Shown one piece after another: positions 2,878 through 41,284 of a DNA stretch of 47,244 bases (its first letter is position 1; each line of letters opens with the position of its first letter). The position numbers and the translations under genes are program-made. The stretch spans positions 1 to 47,244 of the IMG/VR virus record IMGVR_UViG_3300037760_000081; one strand, 5' to 3'. This DNA is from a virus (lineage: Duplodnaviria; Caudoviricetes). The notes beneath the pieces were generated by a model. The model was not told the origin of the DNA, ran no database searches, and saw only the letters and a program-made list of their open reading frames with translations.

Positions 2878-3290
2878 CGCTTTGCCCCGGGGGTTTTCAG
2901 AAGATGCACTATGGTGGCAACCACCGAACGCATTATGATGCAAAGCATTTTGTATTGCTCGGAACCGGGCAGCTTTTCCTTAGACCACTCGGCAATGATG
3001 CGGTTGCACGTGCCCTCGTCGTCGCACAGTAGGGCACGCACGTAATGCGAAATCTCGTCGCGGCGCTCGTATCCGGGCTCGGGCTGGACAATGTCATCGT
3101 CTAACAGCTCAACGTAATCCAGCGTCTGGCCCATTCCCGCAAGAGTGGCGACAAGTAGGGCCGCAAGGCGGGGGTGTCGTGCGTAGTCCGTGATCTGTTC
3201 CTCGGCGGCCGTCAGATCGCCTTTCACGTAAAGGGCGATCATGTTGGTTGCTATCTTGTCTATGTCCGCGACCGTTAGTGCAATGACCAT
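2874..3290 (-). CDS. Hypothetical helical protein
   Basis: ORF overlapping the HicA-like gene and coupled by ATGA to the Xis-like gene. Confidence 0.65.
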   Translation of the reverse strand: MVIALTVADIDKIATNMIALYVKGDLTAAEEQITDYARHPRLAALLVATLAGMGQTLDYVELLDDDIVQPEPGYERRDEISHYVRALLCDDEGTCNRIIAEWSKEKLPGSEQYKMLCIIMRSVVATIVHLLKTPGAKR

Positions 3291-3631
3291 GGAATTTCCC
3301 TCATCATGCAGTTGAGCGCGTTCAGCTCTTTCTCGCGCCGCACGTTCACCGGTTCGGCCGGCGGGATCACCGCTTGACGCCGGGGGCGTGGGGCGGACTT
3401 GACCCGGCGTTGCCCTATCCGGGCTGGCGCGCCCCGGCGGGTCAGCCCTAGCTGGCGCCGGATTACCGCCTCGGTGTTCGCTAGCGCCCGACCCTCGCCG
3501 GGGGTACTGGACACGACGACAGGACGGCTCAGGGTTCGGTGGTAGGCGCGCAGGTGTGATCCGCCCGTCTGTTCCACCCTGTGAAAGCCGTACTCCCGCA
3601 ACAGCGCGTACAGCTCAGCCCTGGTCGACAT
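3275..3631 (-). CDS. HicA-like mRNA interferase domain protein
   Basis: LLREYGFHRVEQTGGSHLRAYH...VVVSSTP matches the HicA dsRBD-like GSH motif; basic C-terminal extension. Confidence 0.65.
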   Translation of the reverse strand: MSTRAELYALLREYGFHRVEQTGGSHLRAYHRTLSRPVVVSSTPGEGRALANTEAVIRRQLGLTRRGAPARIGQRRVKSAPRPRRQAVIPPAEPVNVRREKELNALNCMMREIPWSLH

Positions 3632-10871: not shown

Positions 10872-11047
10872 TGGATTGCCAGCATTGCGGGCAGCAGTTC
10901 GACCCGATCGCCACTAGGTGGCTGTGCCCCTACTGTAGAATGAAAAACACCTGCTGTGAAGGGAGTAGCGATGAAGCCGGAATGCCACCTAGGGTTGACC
11001 CGGGGCCAGGTTCTGGACCTGGTAGGAGACCGCCTGGGGGAGTTTGA
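10871..11047 (+). CDS. Small CxxC zinc-finger protein
   Basis: Hand translation DCQHCGQQFDPIATRWLCPYCRMKNTCCEG. Confidence 0.55.
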   Translation: MDCQHCGQQFDPIATRWLCPYCRMKNTCCEGSSDEAGMPPRVDPGPGSGPGRRPPGGV

Positions 11048-11207
11048 CAAATGGATGACCGGGCAGACCGGGGGGCTGTGTCTGGGCAGGCAGTACAACA
11101 CCACCACCCTGGCATGGGAGACCGCCTGCGGGGGCGTGTCGCACGGTCCGGTGTACTACCCGGAGGATGTGAGCCGGTTCCTCAACGGGCAGCCGGTAGT
11201 GGACTGA
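10971..11207 (+). CDS. Hypothetical protein
   Basis: RBS GGGAG; last gene before the terminator. Confidence 0.6.
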   Translation: MKPECHLGLTRGQVLDLVGDRLGEFDKWMTGQTGGLCLGRQYNTTTLAWETACGGVSHGPVYYPEDVSRFLNGQPVVD

Positions 11208-11218
11208 ACCAGGGCACA

Positions 11219-11255
11219 AAAATAGAGGCCGACCCGGGTGGGTCGGCCCCTATTT
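11219..11255. terminator. Bidirectional intrinsic terminator
   Basis: AAATAG-AGGCCGACCC/GGGTCGGCC-CCTATTT between convergent operons. Confidence 0.75.
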
Positions 11256-11256
11256 C

Positions 11257-11649
11257 CTATTCGGTTCCCTTGGTCGCTGCCAGCAGTGCCGCCCGGCGGG
11301 TAAACTCTGCCCTACTCACCCTGGCTTTCCTGGCGGCTGCCGTTATCACGCGGTCTTCCTCCAGGGTGAGGCGCATTTCCAGGCGCCTTACCGCCAGCTC
11401 GGTCCGACGTAGCGGCCCGCCGAAATGGGCCAGCCAGGCCATCACCTGGCCACGGGTCCGCTTGTCGATGCGGATTTCCTGAGCGTCCCGGACGTGGACA
11501 CATATCCGGTTGAACCAGTACCGTTCGTTGTCGGCCGGCAGCCGGCCGGCTGCCACGTCGCGAGCCCGGTCACGCATGGGTCGGTCCGAAAGCTTGCCGG
11601 CCAACGCGCCGGCAAGCGTTCTCATTTCGTCCCTGTCGGGCTGCATCAC
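11257..11649 (-). CDS. Protein with C-terminal ribbon-helix-helix domain
   Basis: RRLEMRLTLEEDRVITAAARKARVSRAEFTRRAAL. Confidence 0.6.
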   Translation of the reverse strand: MMQPDRDEMRTLAGALAGKLSDRPMRDRARDVAAGRLPADNERYWFNRICVHVRDAQEIRIDKRTRGQVMAWLAHFGGPLRRTELAVRRLEMRLTLEEDRVITAAARKARVSRAEFTRRAALLAATKGTE

Positions 11650-11828
11650 GTGTCCGCGATGACGGTCAGTTCGGCGGCCGGGTAGAACCCTTCTCCGCCC
11701 TGGTCCCAGACGACAGGGTAGACGTACACCCCGTCATCGTCCAGACCGGCGCCCACCATCCGTATGGCCTCCACCACCTCACCGGTACGCCCGGTGGCGC
11801 GGCGCTTGACCCTGGTACCAACGTCCAT
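11646..11828 (-). CDS. Small SH3/KOW-like protein
   Basis: VGTRVKRRATGRTGEVV...VVWD. Confidence 0.6.
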   Translation of the reverse strand: MDVGTRVKRRATGRTGEVVEAIRMVGAGLDDDGVYVYPVVWDQGGEGFYPAAELTVIADT

Positions 11829-11829
11829 T

Positions 11830-12261
11830 TCACTCCTCCCCTAGTTGGATTGCGATCTCTTGCAGCCGGGCAAGCAGCGTGACCCGCTCGGCTTTCAGTG
11901 TGTCAACGTCCGGCACGATAGGGGCGATCAGGTCCGCGATCTGGTCTCGCACCTTGAGCGCCCAACCGTCCGAACCGTCCAGCCGCCACTCTTGCACCTT
12001 CACGAGCTGGTTACCGGCTACCCGGTACAACACCACGTCACGCCCGTACAGGCGCCCGCTACTCGACTTGTCCTCTACGTAGGAGAGGAAATAGGTGCCC
12101 TCGTCCGCTTCTACGGTCGCGTTGAACTTGTGGAAGGTTCCAACGAATGCGTAGCCGGTGCGGGCGGTCCGGTCCACATAGGCGAGTTGCTTGATCCAGT
12201 GCTTACTAGACCGAGCCTTGCTATTGCTTAGCCCGTGGTCCGGCAATTCCACGATTGGCAT
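11830..12261 (-). CDS. Hypothetical protein (array unit)
   Basis: Preceded by GGGAGGGTTGGCAT-ATG. Confidence 0.75.
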   Translation of the reverse strand: MPIVELPDHGLSNSKARSSKHWIKQLAYVDRTARTGYAFVGTFHKFNATVEADEGTYFLSYVEDKSSSGRLYGRDVVLYRVAGNQLVKVQEWRLDGSDGWALKVRDQIADLIAPIVPDVDTLKAERVTLLARLQEIAIQLGEE

Positions 12262-12426
12262 ATGCCAACCCTCCCTATCTTGCACGGGGCCGGGGGGTCC
12301 GGCCCTGAGGCTTTGTCGTTCCGACTAGCCTTAGCAGCGGACAGACGGTTGCCCGCCTGTCCGCCACTAGGATCAGTCAGTCCGCAGCCTTGCCTCCGTT
12401 CTAGCTGCCGCCGTGGTCCTCCCCGG

Positions 12427-12555
12427 TCAGTTCGTGTCGACGCGGTAGGCGAATGCGTCCCGGGCGATAGCTTCTGCGTCGTAGTCGGCGCCGTCTGCGC
12501 CCAACGCGGGGATGACGGCCCGGTCGACCGCGTCGGCGATGGTGGCATAGCGCAT
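12427..12555 (-). CDS. Small hypothetical protein, possibly truncated
   Basis: RBS AGGAGAG; hand translation MRYATIADAVDRAVIPALGADGADYDAEAIARDAFAYRVDTN. Confidence 0.5.
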   Translation of the reverse strand: MRYATIADAVDRAVIPALGADGADYDAEAIARDAFAYRVDTN

Positions 12556-12567
12556 TAGTCTCTCCTG

Positions 12568-12933
12568 TCAGGTGGTGGCGGTCCGTGCGTCCCGCTGAGA
12601 GTCGTTCTCGACTTGCAGGAACTGGGAGCCTTCCGCACCGATGGGGGTGCACAGATAGACGCGCTTCCCTACGTCACCTGGCCGGATGCGCCCCATGAAA
12701 TCCGCGACCTGCCAGTTACGACCGAACGCCCGAAACGCTTTCTTGCCCACGTCAGCCGACGTGATCTCGCGGTACATGCGCCCGGTGCTGTCCTGCTGTT
12801 CGCCCTCCGGGTGCCCGATGAGGTTGCGGATGTCCACCAGCCGGCTAGCGGCCTGTTCGGGGCGCCTCTCGGCGCGTGCATCCCCATACGCCACAACCAG
12901 CTCTACCAGTTTGCCGGCTTCCCAATCGTTCAT
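12568..12933 (-). CDS. Hypothetical protein (array unit)
   Basis: GGGAGGATTGGCAATG start; internal ADVGK/GDVGK repeat. Confidence 0.75.
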   Translation of the reverse strand: MNDWEAGKLVELVVAYGDARAERRPEQAASRLVDIRNLIGHPEGEQQDSTGRMYREITSADVGKKAFRAFGRNWQVADFMGRIRPGDVGKRVYLCTPIGAEGSQFLQVENDSQRDARTATT

Positions 12934-13010
12934 TGCCAATCCTCCCTCTTAGACCAGCCTTGGTGACCAGCCTTAGCGGCGCGCAGACCGAAGCCTGCCC
13001 ACCACTAGGA

Positions 13011-13163
13011 TCAGTCAGCCATGCGCCTTTCCTCTACTCGCCGCCAGACCCCCCGCCGGTCCGCCTGGTCGCGCAGGAACCACGCCATCGTAGATGCCTG
13101 CCATAGTTCGGTGTAGGTGTAGGTGCGGGACCCGTCAGAATCCCGCACCGTCACCCGGTGCAC
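13011..13163 (-). CDS. Small hypothetical protein
   Basis: Hand-translated 50 aa ORF after lsr2 that ends in a hairpin element. Confidence 0.45.
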   Translation of the reverse strand: MHRVTVRDSDGSRTYTYTELWQASTMAWFLRDQADRRGVWRRVEERRMAD

Positions 13164-13166
13164 CCC

Positions 13167-13988
13167 TCACCCCTTGCGGGGTGGCAGTAGCGACGGATCG
13201 TTGTTGAACTGGGCCACGTAGTACGGCTCCGGGATACGCCCCCCCGGCTTGAGGTCATGCCCGTGCAGCTTGGCGAATGCCCTGACCTGTTCGCACAGGT
13301 CCCGCTTCTGCGTGAGCGTTAGCCCCGCCCGGCTTGGTGGCGTCTGCGGTGCCGGCTTAGCCGGTGACGCCGAAGCCTTGGCCTGCCGCATGCCCTCACC
13401 AGCCGCCCGCATGCCCTGCGCGTACTGGGTGCCGTTCGGGTTGTCCCGGAGCCATCGGCGGATCGTGTCTATCTTCGCCCGGGTGATACTGCTAGCGCCG
13501 CGTTCCTGCGCCAGTGCCAGCAGGGCAGGCCGTTTCATGCGGTCGTACTCGTCCGGCTCCACGGCCGGCTCCGGCTTGACCTCCGGCACTGGCGCCGGCT
13601 CCGGCTTTGGCTCCGGCTTTGGTGCCGGAGGCCGGGAACCGTTGGCCATTGCCGCCGAATACTCAGCCATGATCCTAGGCGAAACTCGCCCCTTGTTGGC
13701 TACCGGGTAACCCTCGCCGCGTGCCCATTCACGCACCAGCCGGTTGTGGTCCCGGTCGCGGCCACCGTTGCCGTTGGACCGCTTGCCGTTACCGGTAGCC
13801 GATGCCGATGCCTGCGCCCGGCGCGCGACATACCGGAAAGGCTCCAGCGCAGCCCGCAGTTCCTTTGCGTGCCGGCTGGTGAGGTCAATCTCGTATTGCA
13901 CCCCGTCCAGCCCGAACCGCACGGTTTCGGCCGCCTCTTGCTCCGGGTTCAGGTCATCCAACAGCCGGATAATGGTATGTTTTGCCAT
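13167..13988 (-). CDS. lsr2: Lsr2-family nucleoid-associated protein with a second Lsr2 DNA-binding domain
   Basis: LLDDL...AETVRFGLDGVQYEIDL dimerisation domain; VREWARGEGYPVANKGRV and VRAFAKLHGHDLKPGGRIP DNA-binding domains. Confidence 0.92.
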   Translation of the reverse strand: MAKHTIIRLLDDLNPEQEAAETVRFGLDGVQYEIDLTSRHAKELRAALEPFRYVARRAQASASATGNGKRSNGNGGRDRDHNRLVREWARGEGYPVANKGRVSPRIMAEYSAAMANGSRPPAPKPEPKPEPAPVPEVKPEPAVEPDEYDRMKRPALLALAQERGASSITRAKIDTIRRWLRDNPNGTQYAQGMRAAGEGMRQAKASASPAKPAPQTPPSRAGLTLTQKRDLCEQVRAFAKLHGHDLKPGGRIPEPYYVAQFNNDPSLLPPRKG

Positions 13989-14081
13989 TGCCCTTTACCT
14001 TTCCCTTGCCGGCTAGCCTTTTGTGACTAGCCTTGACAGCACACCCGGCGCGTGTCCGGGTGTGCCATCAGGGTTAGTCAG

Positions 14082-14375
14082 TCATTCACTTCTGGGTCGC
14101 TGGTCGCCACGGTAAATGTCACCCTCCACATAGGTGATGAGGTCCCCGTTTGGGGCCTGCGCCACCCAATAATAGGGGGCCTCCATCCACACCAGCACCC
14201 AGCCGGCATCGGTCAGGCTTTCCAGCACGGTCCCATCGCCACCACCCCCAGCGAAAAACCCGTCACCCGATGACGTGCCCGGCGCCACGGTCAGGATGCG
14301 CAAGACATCATCCGCTGTCACTGCGGTACGCAACTCGTCTAGTTGAGTCTCGATCGCAGCCCAAAAACTATTCAT
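14082..14375 (-). CDS. Hypothetical protein (array unit)
   Basis: GGGAGGGTTAGCAATG start. Confidence 0.78.
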   Translation of the reverse strand: MNSFWAAIETQLDELRTAVTADDVLRILTVAPGTSSGDGFFAGGGGDGTVLESLTDAGWVLVWMEAPYYWVAQAPNGDLITYVEGDIYRGDQRPRSE

Positions 14376-14448
14376 TGCTAACCCTCCCTGTTTGAGTGTC
14401 TGACACACTCCCTAGGCGCACAGGTGACCTGTGCGCCACAGGTTAGTG

Positions 14449-14763
14449 TCAGCGTGACGGGAGAATGCCCCTCCCCGCCAGGTAGCGCGCCCAATAGCGC
14501 GACGCGCTAGCAAGCCAGAATGTCTGGCTCGGTGCCACCGTGACCGGCTCGGTTGACGCCATGTCCAGTTGCACGAATACGTACCGCAGCGCTATCCGTG
14601 CCCGGTGCCGACTAACCTGTACCGTTTCCCTGCCGACGATGCGGACCGGGGTGGTTGTCTTACCCTTGCGGGTAGCCGGGCGCCATTCGTCCCCGATTTC
14701 TTCCAGTAGCACGATATCGCCGTGCTGGATACGCGACGCCGTAATCTTTCCTTCGGCTGTCAT
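14449..14763 (-). CDS. Hypothetical protein (array unit)
   Basis: GGGAGGGATAGAGCATG start; TGA lies in the hairpin arm. Confidence 0.75.
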   Translation of the reverse strand: MTAEGKITASRIQHGDIVLLEEIGDEWRPATRKGKTTTPVRIVGRETVQVSRHRARIALRYVFVQLDMASTEPVTVAPSQTFWLASASRYWARYLAGRGILPSR

Positions 14764-14845
14764 GCTCTATCCCTCCCTTACGGAATCTCTGATGACTCCC
14801 CTAGGGTGCCGGTTGAAACCGGCACCCGTAGGCAACCGCCAGCGA

Positions 14846-15280
14846 TTACCGCCCGGCCATGATCCGACGGAACACGTACAGCGCGAACACCTCGCGACTG
14901 AACGGGCTAGCGTCGGCTATCGACTCCAAGAGGGGCGCCAGGATGGCGTCTAGCGCCGAATCGTCCTTCGCCTTACGCTCTGTAGCCTTGACCCGCAACA
15001 CCCGCTCTGCAACGGCGTGGGCTGCCTCTAGGCGAGCCCGTAGCGCGTCGTCACCGTGGCGCCGGTAGAATTCGGGCGTACCGTACCGGGTGATAGCGGT
15101 TTCACCCCGCACCACCTTTACCCGGTACTCGCTACCGACCGCGTGACTGCCCTTTGCCGCATAGAGCAGCACCGGGTCAGGCTCGCCCAGGTCAGCTACC
15201 GGCAGCCACGCATGCACCCGTTTTCCCTGATTAATCCGGGTACCGCCGAACACCCATATTTCTTCCTGCGGTTCACCCAT
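14846..15280 (-). CDS. Hypothetical protein (array unit)
   Basis: GGGAGGGTTAGCAATG start. Confidence 0.78.
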   Translation of the reverse strand: MGEPQEEIWVFGGTRINQGKRVHAWLPVADLGEPDPVLLYAAKGSHAVGSEYRVKVVRGETAITRYGTPEFYRRHGDDALRARLEAAHAVAERVLRVKATERKAKDDSALDAILAPLLESIADASPFSREVFALYVFRRIMAGR

Positions 15281-15357
15281 TGCTAACCCTCCCATTGTTG
15301 CCCGTTAGAACAATCGGGTACCCGCACCCTGTCGGGCACCCTCGTTGCCACAACGGA

Positions 15358-15846
15358 TCACCTCGCCGCGAGCCGAATCTCTCGCACGATGCGAATGATG
15401 GAACGTTGCCGGTAGCCCGCTAGGCACCGGTCGCACACCCGGTCATAGGTGACCTCGGGATCGGACGGCGGCATGCTGTACGCCATTTCCGTACTAGCGT
15501 GCCCTTTGCAGCCGATCGTTTCGCAGGACCCCGGCATGCTCGGATGCCGTAACGCCCATGTGCTCAGCATATCCAGGCACCATTGATCTATGGTGGTGTC
15601 CGCGTACCTCCGCACTGCCGCAATGCCGTCAACGAGCGCGGCAAGCTCCACCCGCCCGGTAGTGGACAGTGCGGCGAACGCCCTGCCCTCTGTGCCGGCT
15701 GACTGCCACCATGAGGCAATCGTGACCGCGGCGGCATCCGTGATTTCGCGGACACCGTTGCGTGTCCTGACTTGCACGGTGACCTCACCCGATGACAGGT
15801 GATCCGGCACGCGACCGTTCACGCGGCAGTCGATCATTTTGCCCAT
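15358..15846 (-). CDS. Hypothetical protein with C-terminal Cys motif (array unit)
   Basis: GGGAGGGTTAGCGATG start; CETIGC...CDRC. Confidence 0.75.
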   Translation of the reverse strand: MGKMIDCRVNGRVPDHLSSGEVTVQVRTRNGVREITDAAAVTIASWWQSAGTEGRAFAALSTTGRVELAALVDGIAAVRRYADTTIDQWCLDMLSTWALRHPSMPGSCETIGCKGHASTEMAYSMPPSDPEVTYDRVCDRCLAGYRQRSIIRIVREIRLAAR

Positions 15847-15921
15847 CGCTAACCCTCCCAATCGTTTGAGCGTCTGACGCACTCGCACAGGGCACAGATG
15901 GCCTGTGCCCCGTAGGCAGTG

Positions 15922-16227
15922 TCAGTCAGGCAGCACGCCGGTACGCACGGCCGTAGTAAGCCGCGCCGTTACCTCGCGTGCGGCATGATGCTCCACAACC
16001 CGCACACAGTGTGCAACGGGCGCGGGCGTGTAGCGCGCGCTCCAAGCCTCTAGCACCCTGTCCGGGTCGACATGGGGGTATGCCGCCGCAACAGCGGCCA
16101 GGAGCAGTACCGCGCTACGCCTGTACGGCCCGGACTCTGGATTGCTGATGTACGAATCCAGCGAGGTAACGGTGTGGTAATGGTGCCGTGCCGCGCTCTC
16201 TGCCAGATCCTTCAGATTGACAATCAT
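15922..16227 (-). CDS. Hypothetical protein (array unit)
   Basis: GGGAGGGTTAGCAATG start; TGA lies in the hairpin arm. Confidence 0.75.
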   Translation of the reverse strand: MIVNLKDLAESAARHHYHTVTSLDSYISNPESGPYRRSAVLLLAAVAAAYPHVDPDRVLEAWSARYTPAPVAHCVRVVEHHAAREVTARLTTAVRTGVLPD

Positions 16228-16300
16228 TGCTAACCCTCCCAATCGGAACCCTGATGATTCCCCTAGAGTGCCGGTCGGGACCGGCACCCGTAGGCAGTCA

Positions 16301-16714
16301 TCAGGCTTTCGCGCAACGCTCAAGCCACGCTAGCCGGTAGCGCACGGCAGACAGGACAGCCGGACTGGCGCCGTACACATGCGCCGCTAGCCGAATCTCC
16401 TGCCCGGTGTAGTGGCTGATGATCTCGGAATCGCAGGCGTAGAAAGTGCCACGCTCTGAACCCTCTTCCGGCAACCCGATGCGGCTGATGATTGTATCCG
16501 TCACCCATTCAATGAGCGGACCGTTCTCCGGATCGTATGCGTCCGGGCAGACATCATCGTGGCTTTCCCGAACCTCGCTCAGTGTCCAGTCAGGATCGAC
16601 CCAACCATTCTCCAGAGTGAACCCGCTACCCGGTTCGCACCCGTCACCGTAGCAGTCTGTGTCACTGCCGTCCGGTGTCATCAGGTCACCCGTGTAGTAA
16701 ATCTCGACCGTCAT
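16301..16714 (-). CDS. Acidic hypothetical protein (array unit)
   Basis: GGGAGGGTTAGCAATG start; Asp/Glu-rich. Confidence 0.78.
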   Translation of the reverse strand: MTVEIYYTGDLMTPDGSDTDCYGDGCEPGSGFTLENGWVDPDWTLSEVRESHDDVCPDAYDPENGPLIEWVTDTIISRIGLPEEGSERGTFYACDSEIISHYTGQEIRLAAHVYGASPAVLSAVRYRLAWLERCAKA

Positions 16715-16786
16715 TGCTAACCCTCCCGATAGACTCTGATTGGTCCCCTAGACACACGGAACCGTTCCGCGTGCCGTAGGCACCCG

Positions 16787-16936
16787 TCAAAGTGCGACAT
16801 CACGCTTATAGAGCGCGTGGCAGCGCATAGCCTGACCGATGAAATACCGCCTGGTCACCGGATGCAAACCAGGCTTACGTGATGACCGCAGCCAACTAAT
16901 GGCATCGGTACGCCCGTATTCTGCCCAATAAGTCAT
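16787..16936 (-). CDS. Small hypothetical protein (array unit)
   Basis: GGGAGGGTTGGCAATG start; TGA lies in the hairpin arm. Confidence 0.68.
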   Translation of the reverse strand: MTYWAEYGRTDAISWLRSSRKPGLHPVTRRYFIGQAMRCHALYKRDVAL

Positions 16937-17022
16937 TGCCAACCCCTCCCAATCATGTTGACCCGTAAAGATCGTACGCGCGACAGACCGTAGGCTGTCA
17001 CGCATACATCCCCTACGCGCGT

Positions 17023-17304
17023 TCACCAGTCATAGCGGCAAAACTCGGCCGTTGCAACTTGTGCCATCAACTCACTGACCGGCCAGAAAGCCTCCATTCC
17101 CCCTTGTGTGGTGACACGGAGGTACCCGTCGCGGATATCCACCGTTGGCGGTAGGAAGTTGCCGTTTACATCCGACACGGCGCGTGCCGTTCCGTAGATC
17201 ACGTAACCATCGATCAGCCGCGCGATTTTGTTGCAACCTTGTGCAGCGTGCACGATTTCGCAGAGTAAAACGGTGTCGTGAACACTTAGCGGCTTGTGAC
17301 TCAT
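17023..17304 (-). CDS. Hypothetical protein (array unit)
   Basis: GGGAGGGTTAGCAATG start. Confidence 0.75.
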   Translation of the reverse strand: MSHKPLSVHDTVLLCEIVHAAQGCNKIARLIDGYVIYGTARAVSDVNGNFLPPTVDIRDGYLRVTTQGGMEAFWPVSELMAQVATAEFCRYDW

Positions 17305-17377
17305 TGCTAACCCTCCCAATATTGAGTGACTGACACACTCGCTAGGGGCACGTGCGAGACGCGACCCTAAGGCAGTG

Positions 17378-17563
17378 TCAGGCAAACCGCAGACAACGCC
17401 CACAGGGCCTGCCATCCCTGCCACAGATACCGCTTTCGTGTGGCGCGTAGTCGACTGACGGGCCGAACTTCCCAAGCCACCAGGCGACTACGCGAGCCAC
17501 CTGTTCACCCGGCACGCGCACCACGTACCCGGTTGCTTCCGCAGGATCAAACACATACCACAT
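17378..17563 (-). CDS. Small hypothetical protein (array unit)
   Basis: GGGGAGGTTTGGCAATG start; CGRDGRPCGRC. Confidence 0.68.
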   Translation of the reverse strand: MWYVFDPAEATGYVVRVPGEQVARVVAWWLGKFGPSVDYAPHESGICGRDGRPCGRCLRFA

Positions 17564-17617
17564 TGCCAAACCTCCCCAATCGTTTGAGTGACTGACACAC
17601 TCGCATTGGGTACGGCG

Positions 17618-17677
17618 CCAAGATCAAGACCTGGCGCCGTGTCACCATGGCACCCCAAGATCAAGACCTGGCGCCGT
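17618..17677. repeat. 23-bp direct repeat inside a hairpin element
   Basis: CCAAGATCAAGACCTGGCGCCGT at 17618-17640 and 17655-17677. Confidence 0.9.
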
Positions 17678-17692
17678 ACCCAATAGGCAGTG

Positions 17693-17863
17693 TCAGACAG
17701 TATCCAGCGGAAGAACATGCCACCCGCGTACGGGGACAAACCTGCGCACCACATTGCGTGACCTAGGCGCAGCCGCAATACGGTCCGACTGCTCTCTAGT
17801 CAGATTCACGGCCACCGTGCGGTATGTCTTGCCGTAATCCTCGCTGAACAGATAGTCAAACAT
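17693..17863 (-). CDS. Small hypothetical protein (first array unit)
   Basis: Hand translation MFDYLFSEDYGKTYRTVAVNLTREQ... (56 aa); GGGAGGGTTGAGCCATG start. Confidence 0.65.
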   Translation of the reverse strand: MFDYLFSEDYGKTYRTVAVNLTREQSDRIAAAPRSRNVVRRFVPVRGWHVLPLDTV

Positions 17864-18695
17864 GGCTCAACCCTCCCAATCATGTAACGATGGCGCGGCG
17901 GCATACGAGGACAGAACGCCAGAACAGCATGCCGCCCACCAACCAAACACGATTTCATTCTCGGTAGGAAGGTAGGAAGGTAATCAAGCAATCCGGCAGA
18001 CACAGAAACGACAGATCATCATGCGGCTGATTTCGATACACGCTCCCGTGATTCATGCAAAGCATATAAACGATCATGGCATGCTATCGCGACCCTACGC
18101 ATTCACTGCGCTGTGTCTCACCGTGTATCCAGATATCAACCTGCAATCTCACGCCCGGGACTTCCAAGCCTCTCGCCTAGCGCTCCCAGGTGGAGCACCC
18201 CTCACGCTACCCGCTAGCGCCGTAGGCCACAAACCCTACGGCACGCCGTTACGCAATCGTTATGTGAACGCTCAAACAAGGGTGTGGCCAGCATAGATAG
18301 ACAGCCATCAACCCCCGAGCTCTGCCCTGGTGTGCAGCCTGGTGGGTAGGGCAGGGAATGTCACGTCACCGCTATAGGCAATATCCCCACATCACGCCCA
18401 TATGTGTGATTCCGGACATCCGCACCAGGGCAAACCAGGACATCCCGGGCGCAAGATCATAGCCTCGAACCAGGTCAAACCAGGCACCCCGGGCACACCC
18501 ACACATATGTGGTCGACCCGGGGTTTTTAACGCGCGCGCGATCTCACTCTCATATACCCCCTCAGGTATACGTGTGCAGGTTGGGCATGGTGACGGCTTT
18601 GATTTGCAGTAGGAGTCCGTATAGGCCGGTTCCGAGCGTGGTTAGGAGTAGGGGCGCCGGGTAGGCTATGTGTAGGTACGCGGCGACGAGGGCTG

Positions 18696-18914
18696 TCATG
18701 GGTATTGGTGGAGGTCGGGTTCTGTGGTGTAGCTGATTTCGCCGCCTACTACGTCGGCGTAGTGTTCGACTTCGATCCTGTATGGGTCAACTCCACTGGT
18801 TTGGGTGACGGCCTGGTCGGCTAGGGGTGCCTGGACGTACCAGGTGTGGGTTACGCGCCACCAGGTGATGTCTGGGGCGGGTTTTGGGGTGGTTGTGTCG
18901 TTGACTTCGGTCAT
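18696..18914 (-). CDS. Hypothetical protein
   Basis: RBS AAGGAG. Confidence 0.65.
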   Translation of the reverse strand: MTEVNDTTTPKPAPDITWWRVTHTWYVQAPLADQAVTQTSGVDPYRIEVEHYADVVGGEISYTTEPDLHQYP

Positions 18915-18938
18915 GTTTTCTCCTTAGTAGTCGGGGCC

Positions 18939-19457
18939 TCACGCGGCCCCTGGGTCGTGTCCGTTTGTCGGGGGTTGTTCGTCGGCCGGCTGGTCGATTT
19001 CTTCTGCGATGGTCTCAACGACGGCTACCTCCAATTCGGCGAGGGCATCCTGCCACCTTTTGGCCATGTTGATCGGTTGTTCCTGGGCTACCGTGGCAAG
19101 CGTTTTGGCGTACTGTTCCGGAGCCCGGAAGTAGAACGTGGCGTAGGTGGAGTCGAATGTGCAGTCCGCGTCCCGCAGGTAAAGCGGGTGGTTGGGGAGT
19201 TTGACGGTGGCGATGCAGCCGGTACAGTCGCAGTTGTCGGGGGTTTTGGTTTCTCCGGCCAGGATGGCGTGGCAGGTTCGGTTGGAGCCTCCGTTGCGGG
19301 TGTAGACGGCGATCCTGATACCGTCGTCGCTGTTTTCTACCCACGAGTCGCAGTAGCGTCCCACTTGGCTGAACTTGGTGAATCCAAGTGCGGAGAGCAG
19401 GAGTTTGCCGCGTATGCGGGGTTCGCGGTGGCCGAACGCAAAGTTGTAGAAGCTCAT
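18939..19457 (-). CDS. Conserved hypothetical phage protein
   Basis: GRYCDSW...VYTRNGGSNR...HPLYLRDADCTFDSTYATFYF; ATGA coupling. Confidence 0.75.
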   Translation of the reverse strand: MSFYNFAFGHREPRIRGKLLLSALGFTKFSQVGRYCDSWVENSDDGIRIAVYTRNGGSNRTCHAILAGETKTPDNCDCTGCIATVKLPNHPLYLRDADCTFDSTYATFYFRAPEQYAKTLATVAQEQPINMAKRWQDALAELEVAVVETIAEEIDQPADEQPPTNGHDPGAA

Positions 19458-22467: not shown

Positions 22468-22777
22468 GGCCTCCACAAGGCTCACCCTTACGAACGAACC
22501 TACCCTAACCAACGGTCAACGCCCCTGTGTGGCTCTCAGCGGGGTTTTCGGGTGGGTTTTGTTGAATGCGACCCCCCCCCCAATGCGCCTCACGGCGTAG
22601 GGGGTCGCTCTAGCGCGCTGATCCTGTAGTGGGCAGGTGGTCAGTTAGCCCTGGAACAGCGCCGCAAGTCATGACAGGCCGGAGGTGGGCTCGGATGGGC
22701 CGAAAACGCGCGTCTCCTCCTGCGCGCGCACACGCGCGCACGCGCGAGGCCGGTTCGAGGAACGGGGTAGCGCCTGC

Positions 22778-24208
22778 ATGACTCTCACCAGAAAACAAAA
22801 AGCCGCCAACACCCGCAAGCGAAACAAGTTCCTGGAACTTGTCGCCGCCGGCATGAGCGTCAAAGAAGCATGCCGTGAAATCGGCGTACACCGGACCACC
22901 TACCAGCGGTGGAGGTCAGAAAACCCCGACTGGTCCATTCGGATGGACCAGGTGCAGTCCGCCGGAATCGCCGACGCATCCAATGGGCGCGTGCCCGGCT
23001 TCGCCGAATTCTGCAAACGGTACCTGCACCAGCCGATCTACGCCCACCAGCAGAAATGGGTGGATCTGCTCGAAGGCAAAACCCTTCACAACCTACACCC
23101 CTCCATGGTCTACGAACAAGGCTCCCCCAACCACATTCTCATTAATACCCCGCCGGAACACGCCAAGTCCACCACCCTCTCAATCAACTACCCGACCTGG
23201 CGGCTATTGCGCGAACCCAACATCAAAATCATGTTGGTTTCCAAACGGGCCGAACTGGCAGCCGAATTCCTCTACGCAATCAAACACCGGCTGACGCACC
23301 CCCGCTACGCCGAATTGCAGAAAGCGTTCGGCCCCCCCGGTGGATTCAAAGAGGACGCCCCCATCTGGGCGGCCGACCGAATCTACCTCGGATCACAACG
23401 CGACTCCGGCGAAAAAGACCCAACCGTGCAAGCCGTCGGCCTAGGCGGGCAGATTTACGGAGTCCGGTCCGACCTGATCATTGTTGACGACGCCGTGATC
23501 CTCTCCAATGCCCACGAGTTCGAGAAGCAAACCCGCTGGCTGCAACAAGAGGTCATTACGCGACTCGGCACCTACGGCACTTTGCTTGTGGTCGGAACCC
23601 GCGTCGACGCGATCGACCTGTACCGGCACCTACGCACCCCCGACCTGTATCCCACCGGGGAATCACCCTGGACCTACCTGGCGCAGCCGGCGGTGCTCGA
23701 ATACGCCGAAGACCCGAAACTGTGGGTCACTCTCTGGCCAAAGGCGCAAGAACCCTGGCCCGGGTCCAAGGACGTTAAACCCGACGACGACGGGCTGTAC
23801 CCGAAGTGGACCGGTCCGTACCTGGCTCGCCGGCGAGGCATGATCGCCTCCCGCACCTGGGCGTTGGCATACCAACAGGCCGAAGTCGAAGAAGACGCCG
23901 TGTTCCCCGCCGAAAAGGTCAAGGCGTGCCTGTCCCAACGCAACGCCGGCAACCTGCGCCGGGACGAATGCGGGCGCGACATGAACGGCCTCTACGTCAT
24001 CGGCTCCATGGACCCTGCCATGGTGGGCGACACCGGAGTTGTCGTCAAGGCGGTCGACCGGCACACCCGGAAACGGTGGATACTCGACGGCCGGCTACGC
24101 ACCGGAGCCACCCCCGGCTGGATTCGTTCCACAATCAAAGAGCTGACCACGATGTACGGTATCCATGAATGGAGGATTGAAAAGAACGCCTTCCAGGCGT
24201 TCTTATAG
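22778..24208 (+). CDS. terL: Terminase large subunit, part 1 (N-terminal HTH, ATPase, start of nuclease)
   Basis: HTH (VKEACREIGVHRTTYQRWR), Walker A PPEHAKST, LIIVDD, VGTR and nuclease GSMDPA; ends EKNAFQAFL-stop. Confidence 0.92.
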   Translation: MTLTRKQKAANTRKRNKFLELVAAGMSVKEACREIGVHRTTYQRWRSENPDWSIRMDQVQSAGIADASNGRVPGFAEFCKRYLHQPIYAHQQKWVDLLEGKTLHNLHPSMVYEQGSPNHILINTPPEHAKSTTLSINYPTWRLLREPNIKIMLVSKRAELAAEFLYAIKHRLTHPRYAELQKAFGPPGGFKEDAPIWAADRIYLGSQRDSGEKDPTVQAVGLGGQIYGVRSDLIIVDDAVILSNAHEFEKQTRWLQQEVITRLGTYGTLLVVGTRVDAIDLYRHLRTPDLYPTGESPWTYLAQPAVLEYAEDPKLWVTLWPKAQEPWPGSKDVKPDDDGLYPKWTGPYLARRRGMIASRTWALAYQQAEVEEDAVFPAEKVKACLSQRNAGNLRRDECGRDMNGLYVIGSMDPAMVGDTGVVVKAVDRHTRKRWILDGRLRTGATPGWIRSTIKELTTMYGIHEWRIEKNAFQAFL

Positions 24209-27424: not shown

Positions 27425-27892
27425 ATGACTCAGCCCTCCGGCCGGGGCGGCTACCGCCAGCCCCGCCATCCGGCCCCAGCGTCGGGACCAGGGCGCCTCT
27501 CTCGCAGAACCGATGGCGGCCCGGGTGACCGACGCGGCCGGCAACCGGTCCGCGATTTGCCCAACCCCGACTACGGGGAGCAGCAGACGTTCCGGGACAT
27601 CCAGACCGGCGCCCCGATGGCCAACGCGGACGGGCAGCCGGCGGTGCAACCCGTCGACCTGTCCCGCGTAACCCCCCTGGGCGCCCCCACGGGCAACCCT
27701 GACATGCCGGTGACGGCCGGCGCCGACTCCGGCCCCGGCCCCGGCAGTGCCGCACTCGGCCTGGGCGCCACCAGTGACCCGGGGGTGCAGACGCTGCGCG
27801 CCTACCTGCCCGGCCTGGAGGCCATGGCCGAGAGTCCGCAGGCGTCGCGCGGTTTCCGCATGTGGGTCCGCCAGCTCCGGGCGGTGCTCTAG
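27425..27892 (+). CDS. Pro/Gly-rich virion-associated protein
   Basis: GRGGYRQP..PAPASGPGRLSRRTDGGP...PVTAGAD.GPG motif. Confidence 0.75.
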   Translation: MTQPSGRGGYRQPRHPAPASGPGRLSRRTDGGPGDRRGRQPVRDLPNPDYGEQQTFRDIQTGAPMANADGQPAVQPVDLSRVTPLGAPTGNPDMPVTAGADSGPGPGSAALGLGATSDPGVQTLRAYLPGLEAMAESPQASRGFRMWVRQLRAVL

Positions 27893-30800
27893 TGGGATTC
27901 TTTGAGCGTTTCACCTCCACCTTGGATGACTGGAATTTCCGCTGGTCTGACGCGGGCACCAGCCTTGGCAATTCGTGGGATGCTGTGCGCGGGGGTTGGG
28001 CCGAGCAGCAGGCCATTGTTAGTAACCTTTGGGGCACCGCTTTCGGTGGGCACGACGCGAAGGAAAGCGCTGACGCCTTTTGGGCCTCCAAGGGCCTACT
28101 GGACCGGGCAATGGGCCAGTTCGATTTTGCCGGCGAAGCCGTTGGAGGTGTGGTTGGCGCCGCCACACAGATGCCCGGCATTCGGCAGGGGCTGGCGTTC
28201 GCCGATGCGGCACAGCGGGAATTGGTGGGTAGGCCGCTTGCCACGGCGAGCCTGATGCGCGGTGACGCGGTTAACGAACGCGACTCGGGCATTTTCCTTG
28301 ACGCCGATCGATGGAAGCAGGCGTACAACAGCACAACGTATGTCACGCCCGGCCAGGCGTTGGTATTCGCCACGGGCAGCACGGCTCACGGCTTCGTTGG
28401 CGCGTTCGGTGTGGAGCCGACCGCCGAACAGCGCAAGTCGCTCATAGTCGCCAGCCCGCTTCTGGGTACACTTCTCCAGGACCCGAAAAACTACGACCCC
28501 CGGGTACGCGACGAGGGCCGCCGCGCCTACTACGACAACGCGCTACTAAAAGGCGTCTCCGGCACTATGGACGTGGGGATCACCATTTTTGGCGACCCTA
28601 CCGTCATTGGTGGCAAGGCTGCCAGGCTGGCGAAGCTGCGCTACGTGTCGGATGAGATGTCAGCGGCGGCTATCCAGTCAGGCCGCCTCGAATCACACAT
28701 CGACAGCAAGAGCTACCGCCAGGCGAAAGACTTCATCGGCACTGCTGAGAACAGTGAAGTTGTGCGCCGCCGCATGTTCAACAACCACTACGACGGGGGG
28801 CTGGTTTCGGCGCTGTTGTTTGACGCCGCCCGCACCCAGGACGCCTACGAGAAACTGGGCGGCACCGTCGACCTATACGACACCACGTTTCGTGCGTTGT
28901 ACGGCGAGGTGGAAGCGTGGGAGACACTTACCCGGGAGGCCCGGCACTACGCCGATGCAATCGGTAGCGAGAGGGCAAACTATTCGATCGCGGAAGCGGC
29001 TAAAAGGTACGGTACCGGCGATGGGGCCGTTGATGCCCGGGTAGAGACCCTGATCGAAACCAAGGCCGAGGCGTGGGTTGACGCCACCGCTAATGGCTAC
29101 GGCATGTGGGGCAAGGTTGAGGATGCGCCATTGGCCGGACAGGCTGTCCCCCGCCTGCGTGCCACTTCGGCATGGCGTACCGGGGTTCACAGTTTCGTCC
29201 GCAACAAGGTGCCGACCATTGCCGGACATTGGGCAAGGCGGGCCGCCTACGCCCTGCCGTCTCAGCGTAGCGGCAGGATGCTTGACCTGAACGACGCCAA
29301 CTCGGCCAGCGTACTCCGGAACACGCTGGCGCTGTCCCGGATGAGTCAGCATGAGACTGACCGCTGGGTGGGTGCCTACGCCCGTGCCACCTCGCCGGAG
29401 GCCCGGTTCAACATCTACAACGCGGCCGAAAACTATGCTTTCAGGTTGCACGCGAGGGCCTACGGGTTGACCCGTGAGCAGCTTGACGCGCTGATACCTG
29501 TGATGAACCGGCACCGCAAAGGCAATCGGCAGATTTTGTCGGCGAACCGGCGGTACGCCTCAGAGGACGTGCAGAAAGCCTACGAGCGGGCGTTGCAGGA
29601 GAACCGGCTACAGTCTGCCGCTCAACTACAGACGATCCGGCACAACATTGACGAGGCGGTGAAACGGGGAGAGCACCCGGACGCATTCTTTGCTTTGCCG
29701 GACGAGCATGGCCAATTGACTTTGATCCCGCAGGACTCGAATCTCCGCCTGGACCAGCCGATCATTCTCAGCCAGCATGCCGACGTGGTGCCGGTGGTGG
29801 ACTGGAACGTTCTGGAGAATGCCCTCTGGTGGCATGTCGGGTTTGGGCGTGGCAAGCCGGCGAAGTTCGGTGGCCAAAAGGGTGAGGCCGCGCTTGCCAA
29901 GCTCGGGGAAATAGGTTACTCGGTTCAGGACATCAGTCGTGGTGCCCTTGAGGCGGCCATGTCCGTGTGGAAAGTCACGGCCATTCTGCGCCCCGGCTAC
30001 GTTTGGCGCACCTTGTCTGACGAGCTTGGCCGCGTGTGGTCATTGCAGAAGTCTTTCACCTCACTAGCCACAATGGGCCGTGGCGTGGCCAACACCTCTC
30101 ACAACATGCGCACCAGGTCTGGCCGCCTCATGGGTGAGGGGCTGTCTCGTCGGGTGACTGCCGCCCGCGCCCGGGGTGAAGTCATTGAGGTTGACGCCGA
30201 CGCGGTTGAGACGGGCGCCTCGGTGGAAGTGCCGGACGGGGTGCGGCTTACCGCTGACGACGCGGCGGGCGTTGGTGCGGACCTGACCTATCCGACGTTG
30301 GAGCATATGCTTGGCGATGGCGTGCTAGGCGTGCCCGACTATATCGCCCGCGTGGAGGCGATGGGCGAGGCGGGCACGCTGCCACCTCGTATTGCCGAGA
30401 TTTTCGACTCCCACCGGAACGGTATCAAGCCTGACGACGAATACCGACGTGACCTCATTGACGAGGCGTTGCTGTCGGTGAACCGGGCGGCTTACACAAG
30501 CCCTGCGTGGCAGCAGGTCATTCTTGGTGGTGTTCTCCGGGAACGTCAGATGCGTTCGGCTGGCACGGCCGTTGGTGTCCCTGCCGCCTCGCTTGACGCG
30601 AGCGAGATTGCCCGCATTAAAGAGAAGGTGTCCGAGGGGATGTCGCTTGACGACGCAGCCCCCCGGGCGCTGTCCGCCGACGAGTACCGGATTTTGCGGG
30701 AGGGTTTGGCCGCCGGTAAGAACGCCAAGAGGCTCCGGGTGGAGCTTTCCTCCCTGACTCCGGCGCCGGCAGGTGGTAGGCCGGCAAAGTGGGGCGAGCC

Positions 30801-36719: not shown

Positions 36720-36791
36720 CGCGGGTAGGTGCGTCGGTCGCACACAGGGCTCATGTCCCTGCGTTAACCGGTTCGACTCCGGTACCCGCAA
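36720..36791 (+). tRNA. tRNA-Met(CAU), initiator-like
   Basis: CGCGGGT/ACCCGCA acceptor with C1:A72 mismatch, anticodon stem CAGGG-CTCATGT-CCCTG, T-arm ACCGG-TTCGACT-CCGGT; short D-loop, no encoded CCA. Confidence 0.75.
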
Positions 36792-36922
36792 CTCCGCACC
36801 CGTTTACACCGGCAACGGGATCGCGTGTATTGGACCGGGAGTCGTGGACGCCGGCTGACCTATCCCCACGGGTTGGCTGTTGGTTCACGCAAACACTTTC
36901 TCTCCAAAGGTGGGTGTTTTGT

Positions 36923-37441
36923 ATGTCTGAATGGAACCAGCCGGACGATTTCGATGACCTCGAAGAGGGCGAAGAGGGTAAGGGTAAGAACCCTGTTCGT
37001 GATCGGATGAGGAAGTTGGAAAAGGAAAACAAGGAGCTGCGGGAGACCAATGCGAAGCTGTCTAGCCAGACGCGCAAAACGTCTGTGGAGCGGCTTCTGG
37101 CCGACGCGCATGTGAAGCATGCTTCCAAGGTGGCCGGGCTTGTGCCGGGTGACGTGGAGGCGACTGCTGAGGGTGTCAAGCAGTGGCTGGACACCTACGC
37201 TGACGTGTTTTCCATCGAGACTGAGGACGACGCCGGCGAGGGGGGCGACTCCGATGGGGAGCCGACTCCGGAGCAGGTTGAACAGGCTCAGAAGATGGGC
37301 CGCATTGGCAAGGCTACGGCGTCGAACACGACGCCCACTAAGCAGGCTGATCTGGCAAAGCGTCTGGCTGATCCGAAGCTGACCCGTGAGGAACTTCTCG
37401 GGATGATCGAGGAGGCGGGCGGCGGTTTTGGTTCTGGCTGA
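36923..37441 (+). CDS. Capsid scaffolding protein
   Basis: Acidic N-terminus and coiled coil, directly upstream of the capsid gene. Confidence 0.8.
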   Translation: MSEWNQPDDFDDLEEGEEGKGKNPVRDRMRKLEKENKELRETNAKLSSQTRKTSVERLLADAHVKHASKVAGLVPGDVEATAEGVKQWLDTYADVFSIETEDDAGEGGDSDGEPTPEQVEQAQKMGRIGKATASNTTPTKQADLAKRLADPKLTREELLGMIEEAGGGFGSG

Positions 37442-37481
37442 TTCCTTAAACGAACCCACTTTAGGAGAGGGGGTGTAAACA

Positions 37482-38453
37482 ATGTCTGATGACTATACTG
37501 ACATTCTGTCTGGTACGTCTCTCGGTCTTGAGCTTGTGCAACAGGCGTTCGATCGACTGGTAGAGTACGCGCTCCGTGCGCAGCCTCAGTACCGGGCGGT
37601 TGTGGACAAGCGTCCAGCTCAGCAAGCGATGCCGGGCAGTTCGGTCGTTTTCAATATCTACGCCGATCTGGCTCCGAACACCGCAACGCTGACGGAGACC
37701 ACAGATCCCGACGCGGTGGCGATACCGTCGACCACGCCGGTAACGGTGACGTTGAATGAATATGGCATGGCGTCGCTGGTGACTCGGAAGCTGCGGCTTC
37801 TGTCGCTGTCTGACGTGGACCCGGGCATCGCGGACATCATCGCATTCAACATGCTCGATTCCGTCGATATCCTGGTGCGGGACACCGCGCTTGGCGGGAC
37901 CAATGTGGTCCGGGTGAACGGCGGCTCTGTGCTCATCAACTCGGGCACTACCGGTGCCGTTGTCAGCGGGGACATCATGGAGTCTGCGGTGGGACGGTCC
38001 ACCGTGGCTGTTCTGCGGAACTTCAAGGCCATGCCCCGTGTGGACAACCTGTACGTGGCGTACGTCAACCCGGATGTGAGCTACGATCTCCGAAGCGAGA
38101 CCGGCACGTCCAACGCGACGTGGCGGACACCGCACGAGTACAGTGCGGCCGGAAACATCTGGGGCGGCACGATCGGCGAGTACGAAGGAGTGCTCTATGT
38201 GGAGACTCCGCGTACGTTCTTCGCTGATGACGGTGGCACTTCTGAGACCGTTCACCGGTCTCTGGTGTTCGGCCGGCAGGCCATCGCCGAGGCGGTTGCC
38301 GAAGAGCCGGGCGTTCGTATTGGGCCTGTCACTGACAAGCTCATGAGGTTCCGACCCATCGGCTGGTATGGATTGCTTGGCTGGAACATCTACAGGGACG
38401 AATGTATCGTCCGCTGGGAAACCGCCAGCTCCATCAACACCACCAGCCTGTAA
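37482..38453 (+). CDS. Major capsid protein (N4-gp56-like)
   Basis: VTLNEYG, PDVSYDLR and DKLMRFRPIGWY motifs; strong RBS; followed by a terminator. Confidence 0.92.
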   Translation: MSDDYTDILSGTSLGLELVQQAFDRLVEYALRAQPQYRAVVDKRPAQQAMPGSSVVFNIYADLAPNTATLTETTDPDAVAIPSTTPVTVTLNEYGMASLVTRKLRLLSLSDVDPGIADIIAFNMLDSVDILVRDTALGGTNVVRVNGGSVLINSGTTGAVVSGDIMESAVGRSTVAVLRNFKAMPRVDNLYVAYVNPDVSYDLRSETGTSNATWRTPHEYSAAGNIWGGTIGEYEGVLYVETPRTFFADDGGTSETVHRSLVFGRQAIAEAVAEEPGVRIGPVTDKLMRFRPIGWYGLLGWNIYRDECIVRWETASSINTTSL

Positions 38454-38462
38454 CGGCAACTA

Positions 38463-38495
38463 GAGGGGAGCCCTCCGGGGCTCCCCTCGTTCTCT
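38463..38495 (+). terminator. Intrinsic terminator
   Basis: GAGGGGAGCCC/GGGCTCCCCTC stem. Confidence 0.75.
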
Positions 38496-38512
38496 CCCCA
38501 TTGGAGTAACAC

Positions 38513-38878: not shown

Positions 38879-38881
38879 GCC

Positions 38882-40192: not shown

Positions 40193-40201
40193 GAGTTTTG
40201 G

Positions 40202-40351
40202 ATGGCTAAGAAGATGAAGGTCCCGCCGGCGGCTGCAAAGATGGCCGGCGTCAACAATCCTAAGTCGTACAAGGCGATGCCCCCTAAGGGTAAGTCGGCT
40301 GCTGCCAACAAGGGTGGCGGCCGTGCCCTCCGGGCACCGAAGAAGAGGTGA
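40202..40351 (+). CDS. Small basic protein
   Basis: RBS AGGAG; hand translation MAKKMKVPPAAAKMAG...KKR. Confidence 0.55.
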   Translation: MAKKMKVPPAAAKMAGVNNPKSYKAMPPKGKSAAANKGGGRALRAPKKR

Positions 40352-40354
40352 CCA

Positions 40355-41277: not shown

Positions 41278-41284
41278 GTGAGAC

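Follow-up and report, generated by a model that had tools for sequence, protein, structure and literature searches.

In the early region of phage T7, the RNase III sites are irregular hairpins, about two helical turns long and interrupted by internal loops, that separate the cistrons of the polycistronic early mRNA; after cutting, the hairpin stays as a 3′ stabiliser. Promoter-early stem-loops (PeSLs) of T4-type phages contain a strong sigma-70 promoter and a stem-loop that terminates transcription, according to the sections of the reports drawn on here (PMC2839356, PMC4122927). In Cluster K mycobacteriophages, the start-associated sequence and its extended form (SAS/ESAS) present a 13-bp box over the ribosome-binding site, 3–8 bp ahead of start codons; the part of that report used here gives little support for an mRNA hairpin, with departures in one repeat uncompensated (PMC3203893). 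Here we analyse IMGVR_UViG_3300037760_000081, a complete phage genome of 47,244 bp from a sediment metagenome (hereafter the window), in which a leftward operon of small genes is joined by interrupted hairpins that we call connectors. The element belongs with the connector repeats of phage early operons, which are poorly understood, as an unusually well-supported variant; it is not a phage integron.

The reading to which we lean is that the connector is a cis-acting RNA element, probably an RNase III-type processing site or a 3′-stabilising site, beside an independent ribosome-binding site. The connectors are likely promoter-less links between cistrons, acting in the RNA of one long leftward transcript that is predicted to be early.

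Structure and covariation of the connector hairpin

The initial annotation had described about 12 repeated units in three subfamilies, each reading stop codon, hairpin, start motif and ORF. This arrangement is borne out: along the minus strand, hairpins occupy 12 of the 14 junctions, each 72–165 nt long (the other two measure 3 and 12 nt), and the coordinates of the units and the subfamilies A, B and C match those first noted (Table 1). A stop codon is followed by an interrupted hairpin, a strong ribosome-binding site and the next ORF. When folded as RNA and compared with dinucleotide shuffles, the 12 junctions have z-scores between −1.6 and −7.2, ten of them at or below −2.7. Families A and B form a single family of seven hairpins, family C has three members on a similar plan, and the remaining two are unrelated in sequence. 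As originally proposed for at least six units, the upstream TGA falls within the first bases of the 5′ arm, as CUGACAC or CUGAUGA, in six of the seven A/B units.

Downstream of the hairpin, nine array starts carry a box resembling GGGAGGGTTAGCAATG. Written on the + strand, CATTGCTAACCCTCCC has 11 genome matches at up to three mismatches, against 0.36 expected, and nine of these abut array start codons. The exact 16-nt box has four single matches in IMG/VR. The ribosome-binding box lies 8–20 nt past the hairpin and, in 11 of the 15 array genes, 6–7 nt from the ATG.

Relatives carrying the element were located by a pattern for its constant segment and then by a covariance model (R1). Three of them have the core, UGCCUACGG–stem-loop–CUAGGGGA, at the position in the operon that it occupies in the window. 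G001, an IMG/VR phage complete at 48 kb and collinear with the window (65–75% DNA identity in replication and structural genes), has five copies; L043, a fragment nearly identical to G001, has three; and G002 (L039), a 27-kb fragment of 53% G+C that is syntenic with the window and whose terminase is 43% identical, has two, which keep the core alone and follow genes one and two of the corresponding leftward operon. A further copy in L172, whose terminase is 45% identical to that of the window, reads TGA-GAGCCUACGGGGCCC-GAAA-GGGCCCCUAGG and is followed by a ribosome-binding site and ATG. The stop codon lies inside the hairpin base or at most 7 nt before it in 7/7 A/B units of the window, 5/5 copies in G001, 2/2 in G002 and 1/1 in L172.

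On the sense strand, hairpins of the main family consist of a 7-pair outer stem, a constant segment, an inner stem of 9–10 bp that is free in sequence and a loop of 3–7 nt, amounting to about 19 pairs over 24–25 rungs with internal loops. The constant segment, 5′-UGCCUAC...CUAGGGGA-3′, allows two pairings, CCU/GGG with a 2×2 loop and CCUA/UAGG in which one C is bulged; because those pairs never vary, the register is ambiguous.

Inner stems that differ and still pair had been noted in the initial annotation, and their covariation is strong. Among six window copies, 93.9% of cells pair, compared with 78.5% in shuffles, and 18 cells are changed on both sides where 6.9 are expected (0/500 shuffles as high); sliding the partner by 1–3 columns lowers pairing to 29–48%. 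For 13 copies from four phages, both-side-changed cells number 35, against 11.5 ± 2.6 in shuffles, again with none of 500 as high. These changes fall in seven of the nine inner-stem pairs, and covariation is seen only in the inner stem. RNAalifold independently predicts the same inner stem, with compensatory change in eight of its ten pairs. Two other pairings in the window, a 3′ hairpin (GAGUGU/ACACUC) and GUUAG–CUGAC, were dropped as window-specific, being kept in neither G001 nor L043. An Rfam scan of 11000–19000 on both strands returned only two matches, at E ~0.5 and far under gathering scores. A self-cleaving ribozyme was likewise rejected: the family B sequence CUGAUGA resembles a hammerhead core, but family A reads CUGACAC, and there was no Rfam ribozyme match.

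In 17 of 20 elements the fold is more stable on the mRNA-sense strand, which has 50 G–U pairs against 17 on the antisense strand, a bias somewhat inflated by the G-richness of the sense strand. With a second covariance model, of the core (R2), sense-strand scores of the 14 training-type copies all lie between 36 and 46 bits, and no opposite-strand score exceeds 18.7 bits. We read the element as RNA because a dimeric DNA-binding site needs no co-varying middle, and an attC-like site favours the other strand.

An RNA element of this form could also be an operator hairpin, bound by a sequence-specific RNA-binding factor of phage or host origin that is dedicated to it. This factor would read the constant UGCCUAC/CUAGGGGA and thereby govern all promoter-proximal genes jointly, at the level of translation, read-through or decay. 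Such a reader would fit a constant segment whose fixed mismatches are kept across synonymous-saturated phages while the stem above varies freely, as well as the strong strand specificity of model R2 and the restriction of the element to the promoter-proximal half of one operon. The scanned ORFs, however, hold no RNA-binding or ribonuclease family apart from a sub-threshold HicA-like match at 3275–3631, no array protein is common to the window and G002, and no candidate reader was found; we regard this explanation as possible but unlikely.

Conservation, gene exchange and proposed function

Across five conserved genes, four-fold degenerate sites of the window and G001 are 39% identical (422/1073), which amounts to saturation, while the hairpins are 79–90% identical. 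The hairpin at 14400–14452 is 90% identical to its G001 counterpart, while the preceding genes share 44% of residues. Hairpin identity of this order, with synonymous sites saturated, points to purifying selection or to movement between phages. G001 keeps the hairpins but lacks the start box.

Searches with R1 and R2 over about 165 terminase-relative loci gave no confident copy besides those in G001, L043 and G002; L172, L178 and L181 score about 18 bits, and of these L172 alone looks convincing. Among about 120 pattern matches in prokaryotes (one genome per species), just one has at least six end pairs and is likely due to chance; on these sequence grounds the connector is not a host element. 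Of 25 IMG/VR loci matching the hairpin pattern, 17 represent one conserved coding stretch of low-G+C phages and were taken as chance. Our literature searches found no description of this hairpin family, although word searches cannot find sequence motifs. Two further sediment metagenomes from other studies (runs X2 and X3) contain 151-nt contigs identical to the window within 13237–15330, together with diverged relatives of the 17378–17563 gene and a hairpin with yet another inner stem. Contigs of three sediment runs gave no usable joint: an apparent one, from 14420 to 17366, is not a deletion but belongs to the hairpin of a relative, which has a third variant of the inner stem and matches through arms of 19–24 nt only.

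The window and G001 share four array genes in the same order (17378–17563, encoding 61 aa; 14449–14763; the Lsr2 gene; and 11257–11649), with unrelated genes between them. Within the array, hairpins form islands of similarity between the two genomes. A family C hairpin trails the Lsr2 module in both, with different inner stems. Subfamilies are interleaved, and one inner stem is carried by two copies in the window and by one in G001.

G001 and L043 are 98.5–99.8% identical over the array and differ by one replaced segment (G001 489–165, L043 908–437). Its left edge lies 6 nt 3′ of the hairpin at 496–550 and its right edge at the TGA before the next junction hairpin, so that the exchanged unit is exactly a ribosome-binding site plus ORF. 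For the incoming L043 protein, neither the window nor G001 nor G002 offers a convincing relative, the best match (E 1e-4, 59 aa) being to an unrelated 416-aa protein. Another 25 differences are spread over 1.6 kb, and 19 of them lie within three hairpins, which together account for 11% of that length. Seventeen of the latter represent a wholesale swap of the inner core of the hairpin at 833–884, which still pairs, with outer arms and flanks identical. The shuffling first proposed is supported by one replacement edged by connectors and one swap inside a hairpin. To judge from its pattern, the exchange looks like gene conversion, template switching or short-homology double crossovers, not a site-specific single exchange.

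That pattern bears on two explanations at the level of DNA. Integron attC sites carry the core consensus GTTRRRY (R′) and RYYYAAC (R″), and their bottom (non-coding) strand is the one that folds. The initial annotation had suggested a phage gene-capture array, in which the phage tyrosine recombinase acts on attC-like sites in single-stranded form. There is a loose likeness in plan, with a conserved proximal stem carrying fixed mismatches, a variable tip and one site per small ORF; the ORF replacement sits between elements, and a tyrosine integrase is encoded. Core sites are nevertheless absent from 12/12 units on both strands, the integrase is of generic phage type without a match to integron integrases (its sole NCBIfam match at E ≤ 0.01 is to archaeal XerA, where it scores 18.7 bits and the cutoff is 220), and the coding strand folds better than the bottom strand. 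Moreover, the hairpin change is an internal patch with identical flanks and not a one-sided exchange, and the element was not found among the bacterial pattern matches described above. We consider attC-like sites extremely improbable, and this part of the initial annotation did not survive. Alternatively, the connector might have no RNA function of its own and be a recombination linker or self-propagating palindrome, spread by gene conversion between junctions. The hairpin core swapped between near-identical phages would fit, as would the interleaved subfamilies and the inner stem common to two window copies and one G001 copy. Yet a DNA-level linker needs no covariation, no G–U strand bias and no fixed placement of stop codon and ribosome-binding site, and conservation extends to a relative with 43% terminase identity; we hold such a linker to be very doubtful. 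A combined idea, that the invariant UGCCUAC/CUAGGGGA hairpin is an address tag through which one factor controls the whole operon and which also guides ORF replacement, giving a gene-capture platform without integron parts, is a long shot.

Transcription signals were assessed over 11500–18700. Sigma-70-like promoters number 0 against 1.9 expected by an E. coli consensus, which an actinobacterial promoter could escape, and U-tailed terminators occur at the level of chance (4 against 3.9 expected). The hairpins could be intrinsic terminators or attenuators that lack a U tail and leak, grading transcription along the operon, as such terminators reportedly do in the early region of the Streptomyces phage phiC31. 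Stable GC-rich hairpins do stand behind nearly every gene on the transcribed sense strand, and the stem-loops of PeSLs terminate transcription, as stated in the section of the report used here (PMC2839356). Only one of the 12 array hairpins (15341–15316) is terminator-like, however, with the regional count at chance, and at least seven serial terminators would starve distal genes, including the conserved Lsr2 gene. Mycobacterial RNA polymerase, in addition, is reported to require a U tract. Graded termination is, in our estimation, quite improbable.

If the connector is instead an RNase III-type processing or stabilising site, the operon would be transcribed as one early message, and a double-strand-specific endoribonuclease would cut the hairpin, or the hairpin would block 3′ exonucleases. 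Each small gene would thereby gain its own stabilised message, and its own ribosome-binding site would give it independent translation. The hairpin, in its predicted transcript, has the irregular, roughly 20-bp double-stranded character of RNase III sites. With the stop codon abutting the hairpin base, a terminating ribosome would have to melt the hairpin, which, speculatively, could time cutting or promote re-initiation. Since the connector, at 50–75 nt, recurs between unrelated genes and in related phages, it would also offer short homology for the replacement of an ORF or hairpin core that spares the neighbours, and the PeSLs of T4-type phages work likewise. The second model of the initial annotation, RNase III-type processing or translational control, is in agreement with position, size, strand bias and covariation, and cleavage stands as a prediction.

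Several points weigh against this reading. RNase III needs no fixed sequence and so does not account for the constant UGCCUAC/CUAGGGGA, which suggests that something more specific reads it. Transcript, transcript ends and cleavage are all predicted, as is the identity of the host, and accessibility of the ribosome-binding box is middling, at 0.34–0.66 unpaired in most units. As regards exchange, one ORF replacement and one hairpin swap make up the whole sample, the actual crossover points are masked by identical flanks, and breakpoints could come to lie at junctions simply because intact genes are selected for.

Array inventory and genomic setting

Lsr2 (13167–13988, with both domains) is the sole array protein with a Pfam or PHROG match, leaving 14 of the 15 without a family. 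A 162-aa array protein has just two unnamed homologues among 5.8 billion clusters.

Table 1 Features of the connector array, with coordinates in the window unless stated otherwise.
Feature	Coordinates	Strand	Score or basis	Remarks
Leftward operon	11830–17863	−	ORF placement	15 small ORFs (42–273 aa) joined by connectors
Conserved leader ahead of first array gene	17864–18190	−		~80% identical to G001 and L043
Family A hairpin	17592–17696	−	17.2 bits (model R2)	48-nt insertion within inner stem; upstream TGA inside 5′ arm
Family A hairpin	17330–17381	−	60.3 bits	TGA inside 5′ arm
Junction hairpin unrelated to A/B/C sequences	~16955–17012	−		Apical loop contains GCCUACGG
Family B hairpin	16736–16790	−	60 bits	Core UGCCUACGG-stem-CUAGGGGA; TGA inside 5′ arm; inner stem with two G–U pairs
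Family B hairpin	16251–16304	−	67 bits	5′ arm with CUGAUGA double stop; 79% identical to G001 47588–47658
Family A hairpin	15874–15925	−	58.3 bits	TGA inside 5′ arm
Junction hairpin unrelated to A/B/C sequences	~15300–15355	−		Sole array hairpin trailed by weak T-rich tail
Family B hairpin	14789–14842	−	65 bits	Upstream TAA 4 nt ahead of arm
Family A hairpin	14400–14452	−	64.7 bits	TGA inside 5′ arm; 90% identical to G001 829–885
Family C hairpin	14024–14080	−		ACUGACU..CCUxxUGG-stem-GCUxxAGGCUAGUC
Family C hairpin	12964–13015	−		G001 counterpart after Lsr2 (from 43664, minus) has different but pairing inner stem
Family C hairpin	12323–12378	−	12.2 bits	Second GC hairpin follows, ahead of last gene
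Start box GGGAGGGTTAGCAATG, exact	17302–17317; 16712–16727; 16225–16240; 15278–15293; 14373–14388	−
Start box, inexact	15844–15859 (1 mismatch); 17561–17576 and 12931–12946 (2); 16934–16949 (3)	−
Element copies in G001, five	1231–1303; 833–884; 496–550; 47589–47645; 47047–47100 (G001)	−
Tyrosine integrase	45881–47083			Matches phrog_1 (generic phage integrase)

The stem of the connector at 17592–17696 holds a 21-nt direct repeat (GGCGCCAGGTCTTGATCTTGG, twice), and the GGCGCCAGGTCTTGATCTTGG word is inverted in the G001 and L043 hairpin behind the homologous gene. No sigma-70 consensus promoter was found in the leader of about 300 nt upstream of the first array gene. Just upstream of the leader, a hairpin at 18219–18242, GCCGUAGG...CCUACGGC, has the same CCUACGG word as the connectors, and the first array gene has a ribosome-binding site predicted to be fully paired (unpaired probability 0.0). 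A 24-nt string from the leader had 0 matches in metagenome contigs. In G002, TTTAAA (often as ATTTAAAT) is strikingly frequent on the minus strand of 15800–18700; it covers several start codons as GTGATTTAAATG and also one hairpin loop, and may be a lineage-specific start-associated box or a methylation or restriction signature.

The leftward gene block runs from about 22.5 kb down to 11.3 kb. The + strand replication genes encode a PD-(D/E)XK nuclease, an RNA-ligase-like protein, a DnaB/AAA_25 helicase and a primase zinc finger. Where these rightward genes meet the leftward array, a GC hairpin with a T-rich tail at 11592–11617 is likely a shared terminator. A weak HicA-toxin-like match (19.4 bits, under the cutoff of 27) lies in the minus-strand ORF at 3275–3631, which opposes the surrounding + strand genes.

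Structural genes start at 22.7 kb with terminase, portal, the 1910-aa protein and capsid. The large terminase (22685–24208) has an N-terminal helix-turn-helix matching small-terminase PHROGs, which suggests a fused small and large terminase. The 1910-aa ORF at 27862–33594, amid the structural genes, has a sole match to PHROG 10618 (function unknown) and no PDB sequence match. N4-like virion RNA polymerases are expected to carry the motif RxxxKxxxxxxYG. Hairpin promoters for such a polymerase were rejected, judging from sequence alone, as the 1910-aa protein has neither this motif nor a PDB sequence match. A lone tRNA-Met gene lies at 36720–36792 amid the structural genes, the equivalent place in Immanuel3 being a block of 22 tRNA genes.

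The window has a G+C content of 62% overall, ranging from 59 to 69%, and no DNA-level relative among 50,697 phage records (megablast and blastn). Its capsid is 52% identical to those of Streptomyces BI-cluster phages such as Immanuel3. Terminase relatives from metagenome contigs are all at most 51% identical to that of the window, and none was found in genome contigs. From Lsr2, the G+C content and the distant Streptomyces phage relatives, we infer an actinobacterial host.

Comparison with described systems

In the parts of the reports used here, SAS/ESAS (PMC3203893) and the motifs of Microbacterium Cluster EF (PMC7302621) share with the connectors a box, conserved and asymmetric, that covers the ribosome-binding site a few bases ahead of many start codons, as well as enlarged intergenic gaps in which imperfect inverted repeats with a variable middle precede the box, and these too are kept across subclusters before unrelated genes. 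As in those phages, a box stands at nine array starts, with the ribosome-binding box 6–7 nt from the ATG in 11 of 15 genes, in a sequence unlike the Cluster K consensus. Neither by that consensus nor by its genome, with no match among the 50,697 phage records, does the window belong to Cluster K. Compared with the SAS/ESAS as given in that part of the report, the sequences are unrelated (GGGATAGGAGCCC vs GGGAGGGTTAGCA), the middle is a co-varying stem here, and relatives conserve the hairpin and not the start box, as seen in G001. The Cluster K and EF start-associated and intergenic repeats are catalogued there without an assigned function and without RNA-structure evidence (PMC3203893, PMC7302621). 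The present lineage adds what those cases lacked, namely clear compensatory change and strand asymmetry, and further an invariant segment kept past synonymous saturation and a natural genome pair with both ORF and hairpin-core exchange. As a compact, portable insulator of stop codon, hairpin and ribosome-binding site, the connector might be of use in multi-gene constructs for high-G+C hosts.

The PeSLs, in the sections of the reports drawn on here, likewise place stop codon, stem-loop, Shine-Dalgarno sequence and start before small ORFans in a plastic region, with G–T pairs in the stem, and the motifs mark the edges of the insertions, deletions and replacements that distinguish close relatives (PMC2839356, PMC4122927). 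The same layout is seen here, with a stem-loop at 12 of 14 junctions and 14 of 15 proteins without a family, and the single G001/L043 replacement is bounded in the same way. PeSLs differ in having a promoter inside the motif, according to those sections, whereas none was found here (0 against 1.9 expected, a soft negative given the E. coli consensus).

Connector hairpins match the irregular RNase III hairpins of the T7 early region in size and intercistronic position, with cleavage predicted here. To our knowledge, the T7 sites have no shared invariant segment comparable to UGCCUAC/CUAGGGGA. With attC sites, the connectors have in common one imperfect hairpin per small promoter-less ORF, conserved basal mismatches and a variable tip, but they lack core sites and an integron-type integrase, and the opposite strand is favoured.

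The Streptomyces phage Immanuel3 has the same operon style, in which a stop codon is followed by one or two GC hairpins and then CAAGGGGAGAGAnnATG, and its hairpins differ from those of the window. On the minus strand of Immanuel3 (L321) 37000–44900, gp14–gp28, one of them annotated as anti-restriction, are separated by gaps of 65–270 nt with GC hairpins, and many starts carry CAAGGGGAGAGAnnATG, of which our literature searches gave no mention. The recurrence of this layout with different hairpins indicates that the layout is general in the phage group, and that the hairpin with the constant segment is the version of one lineage.

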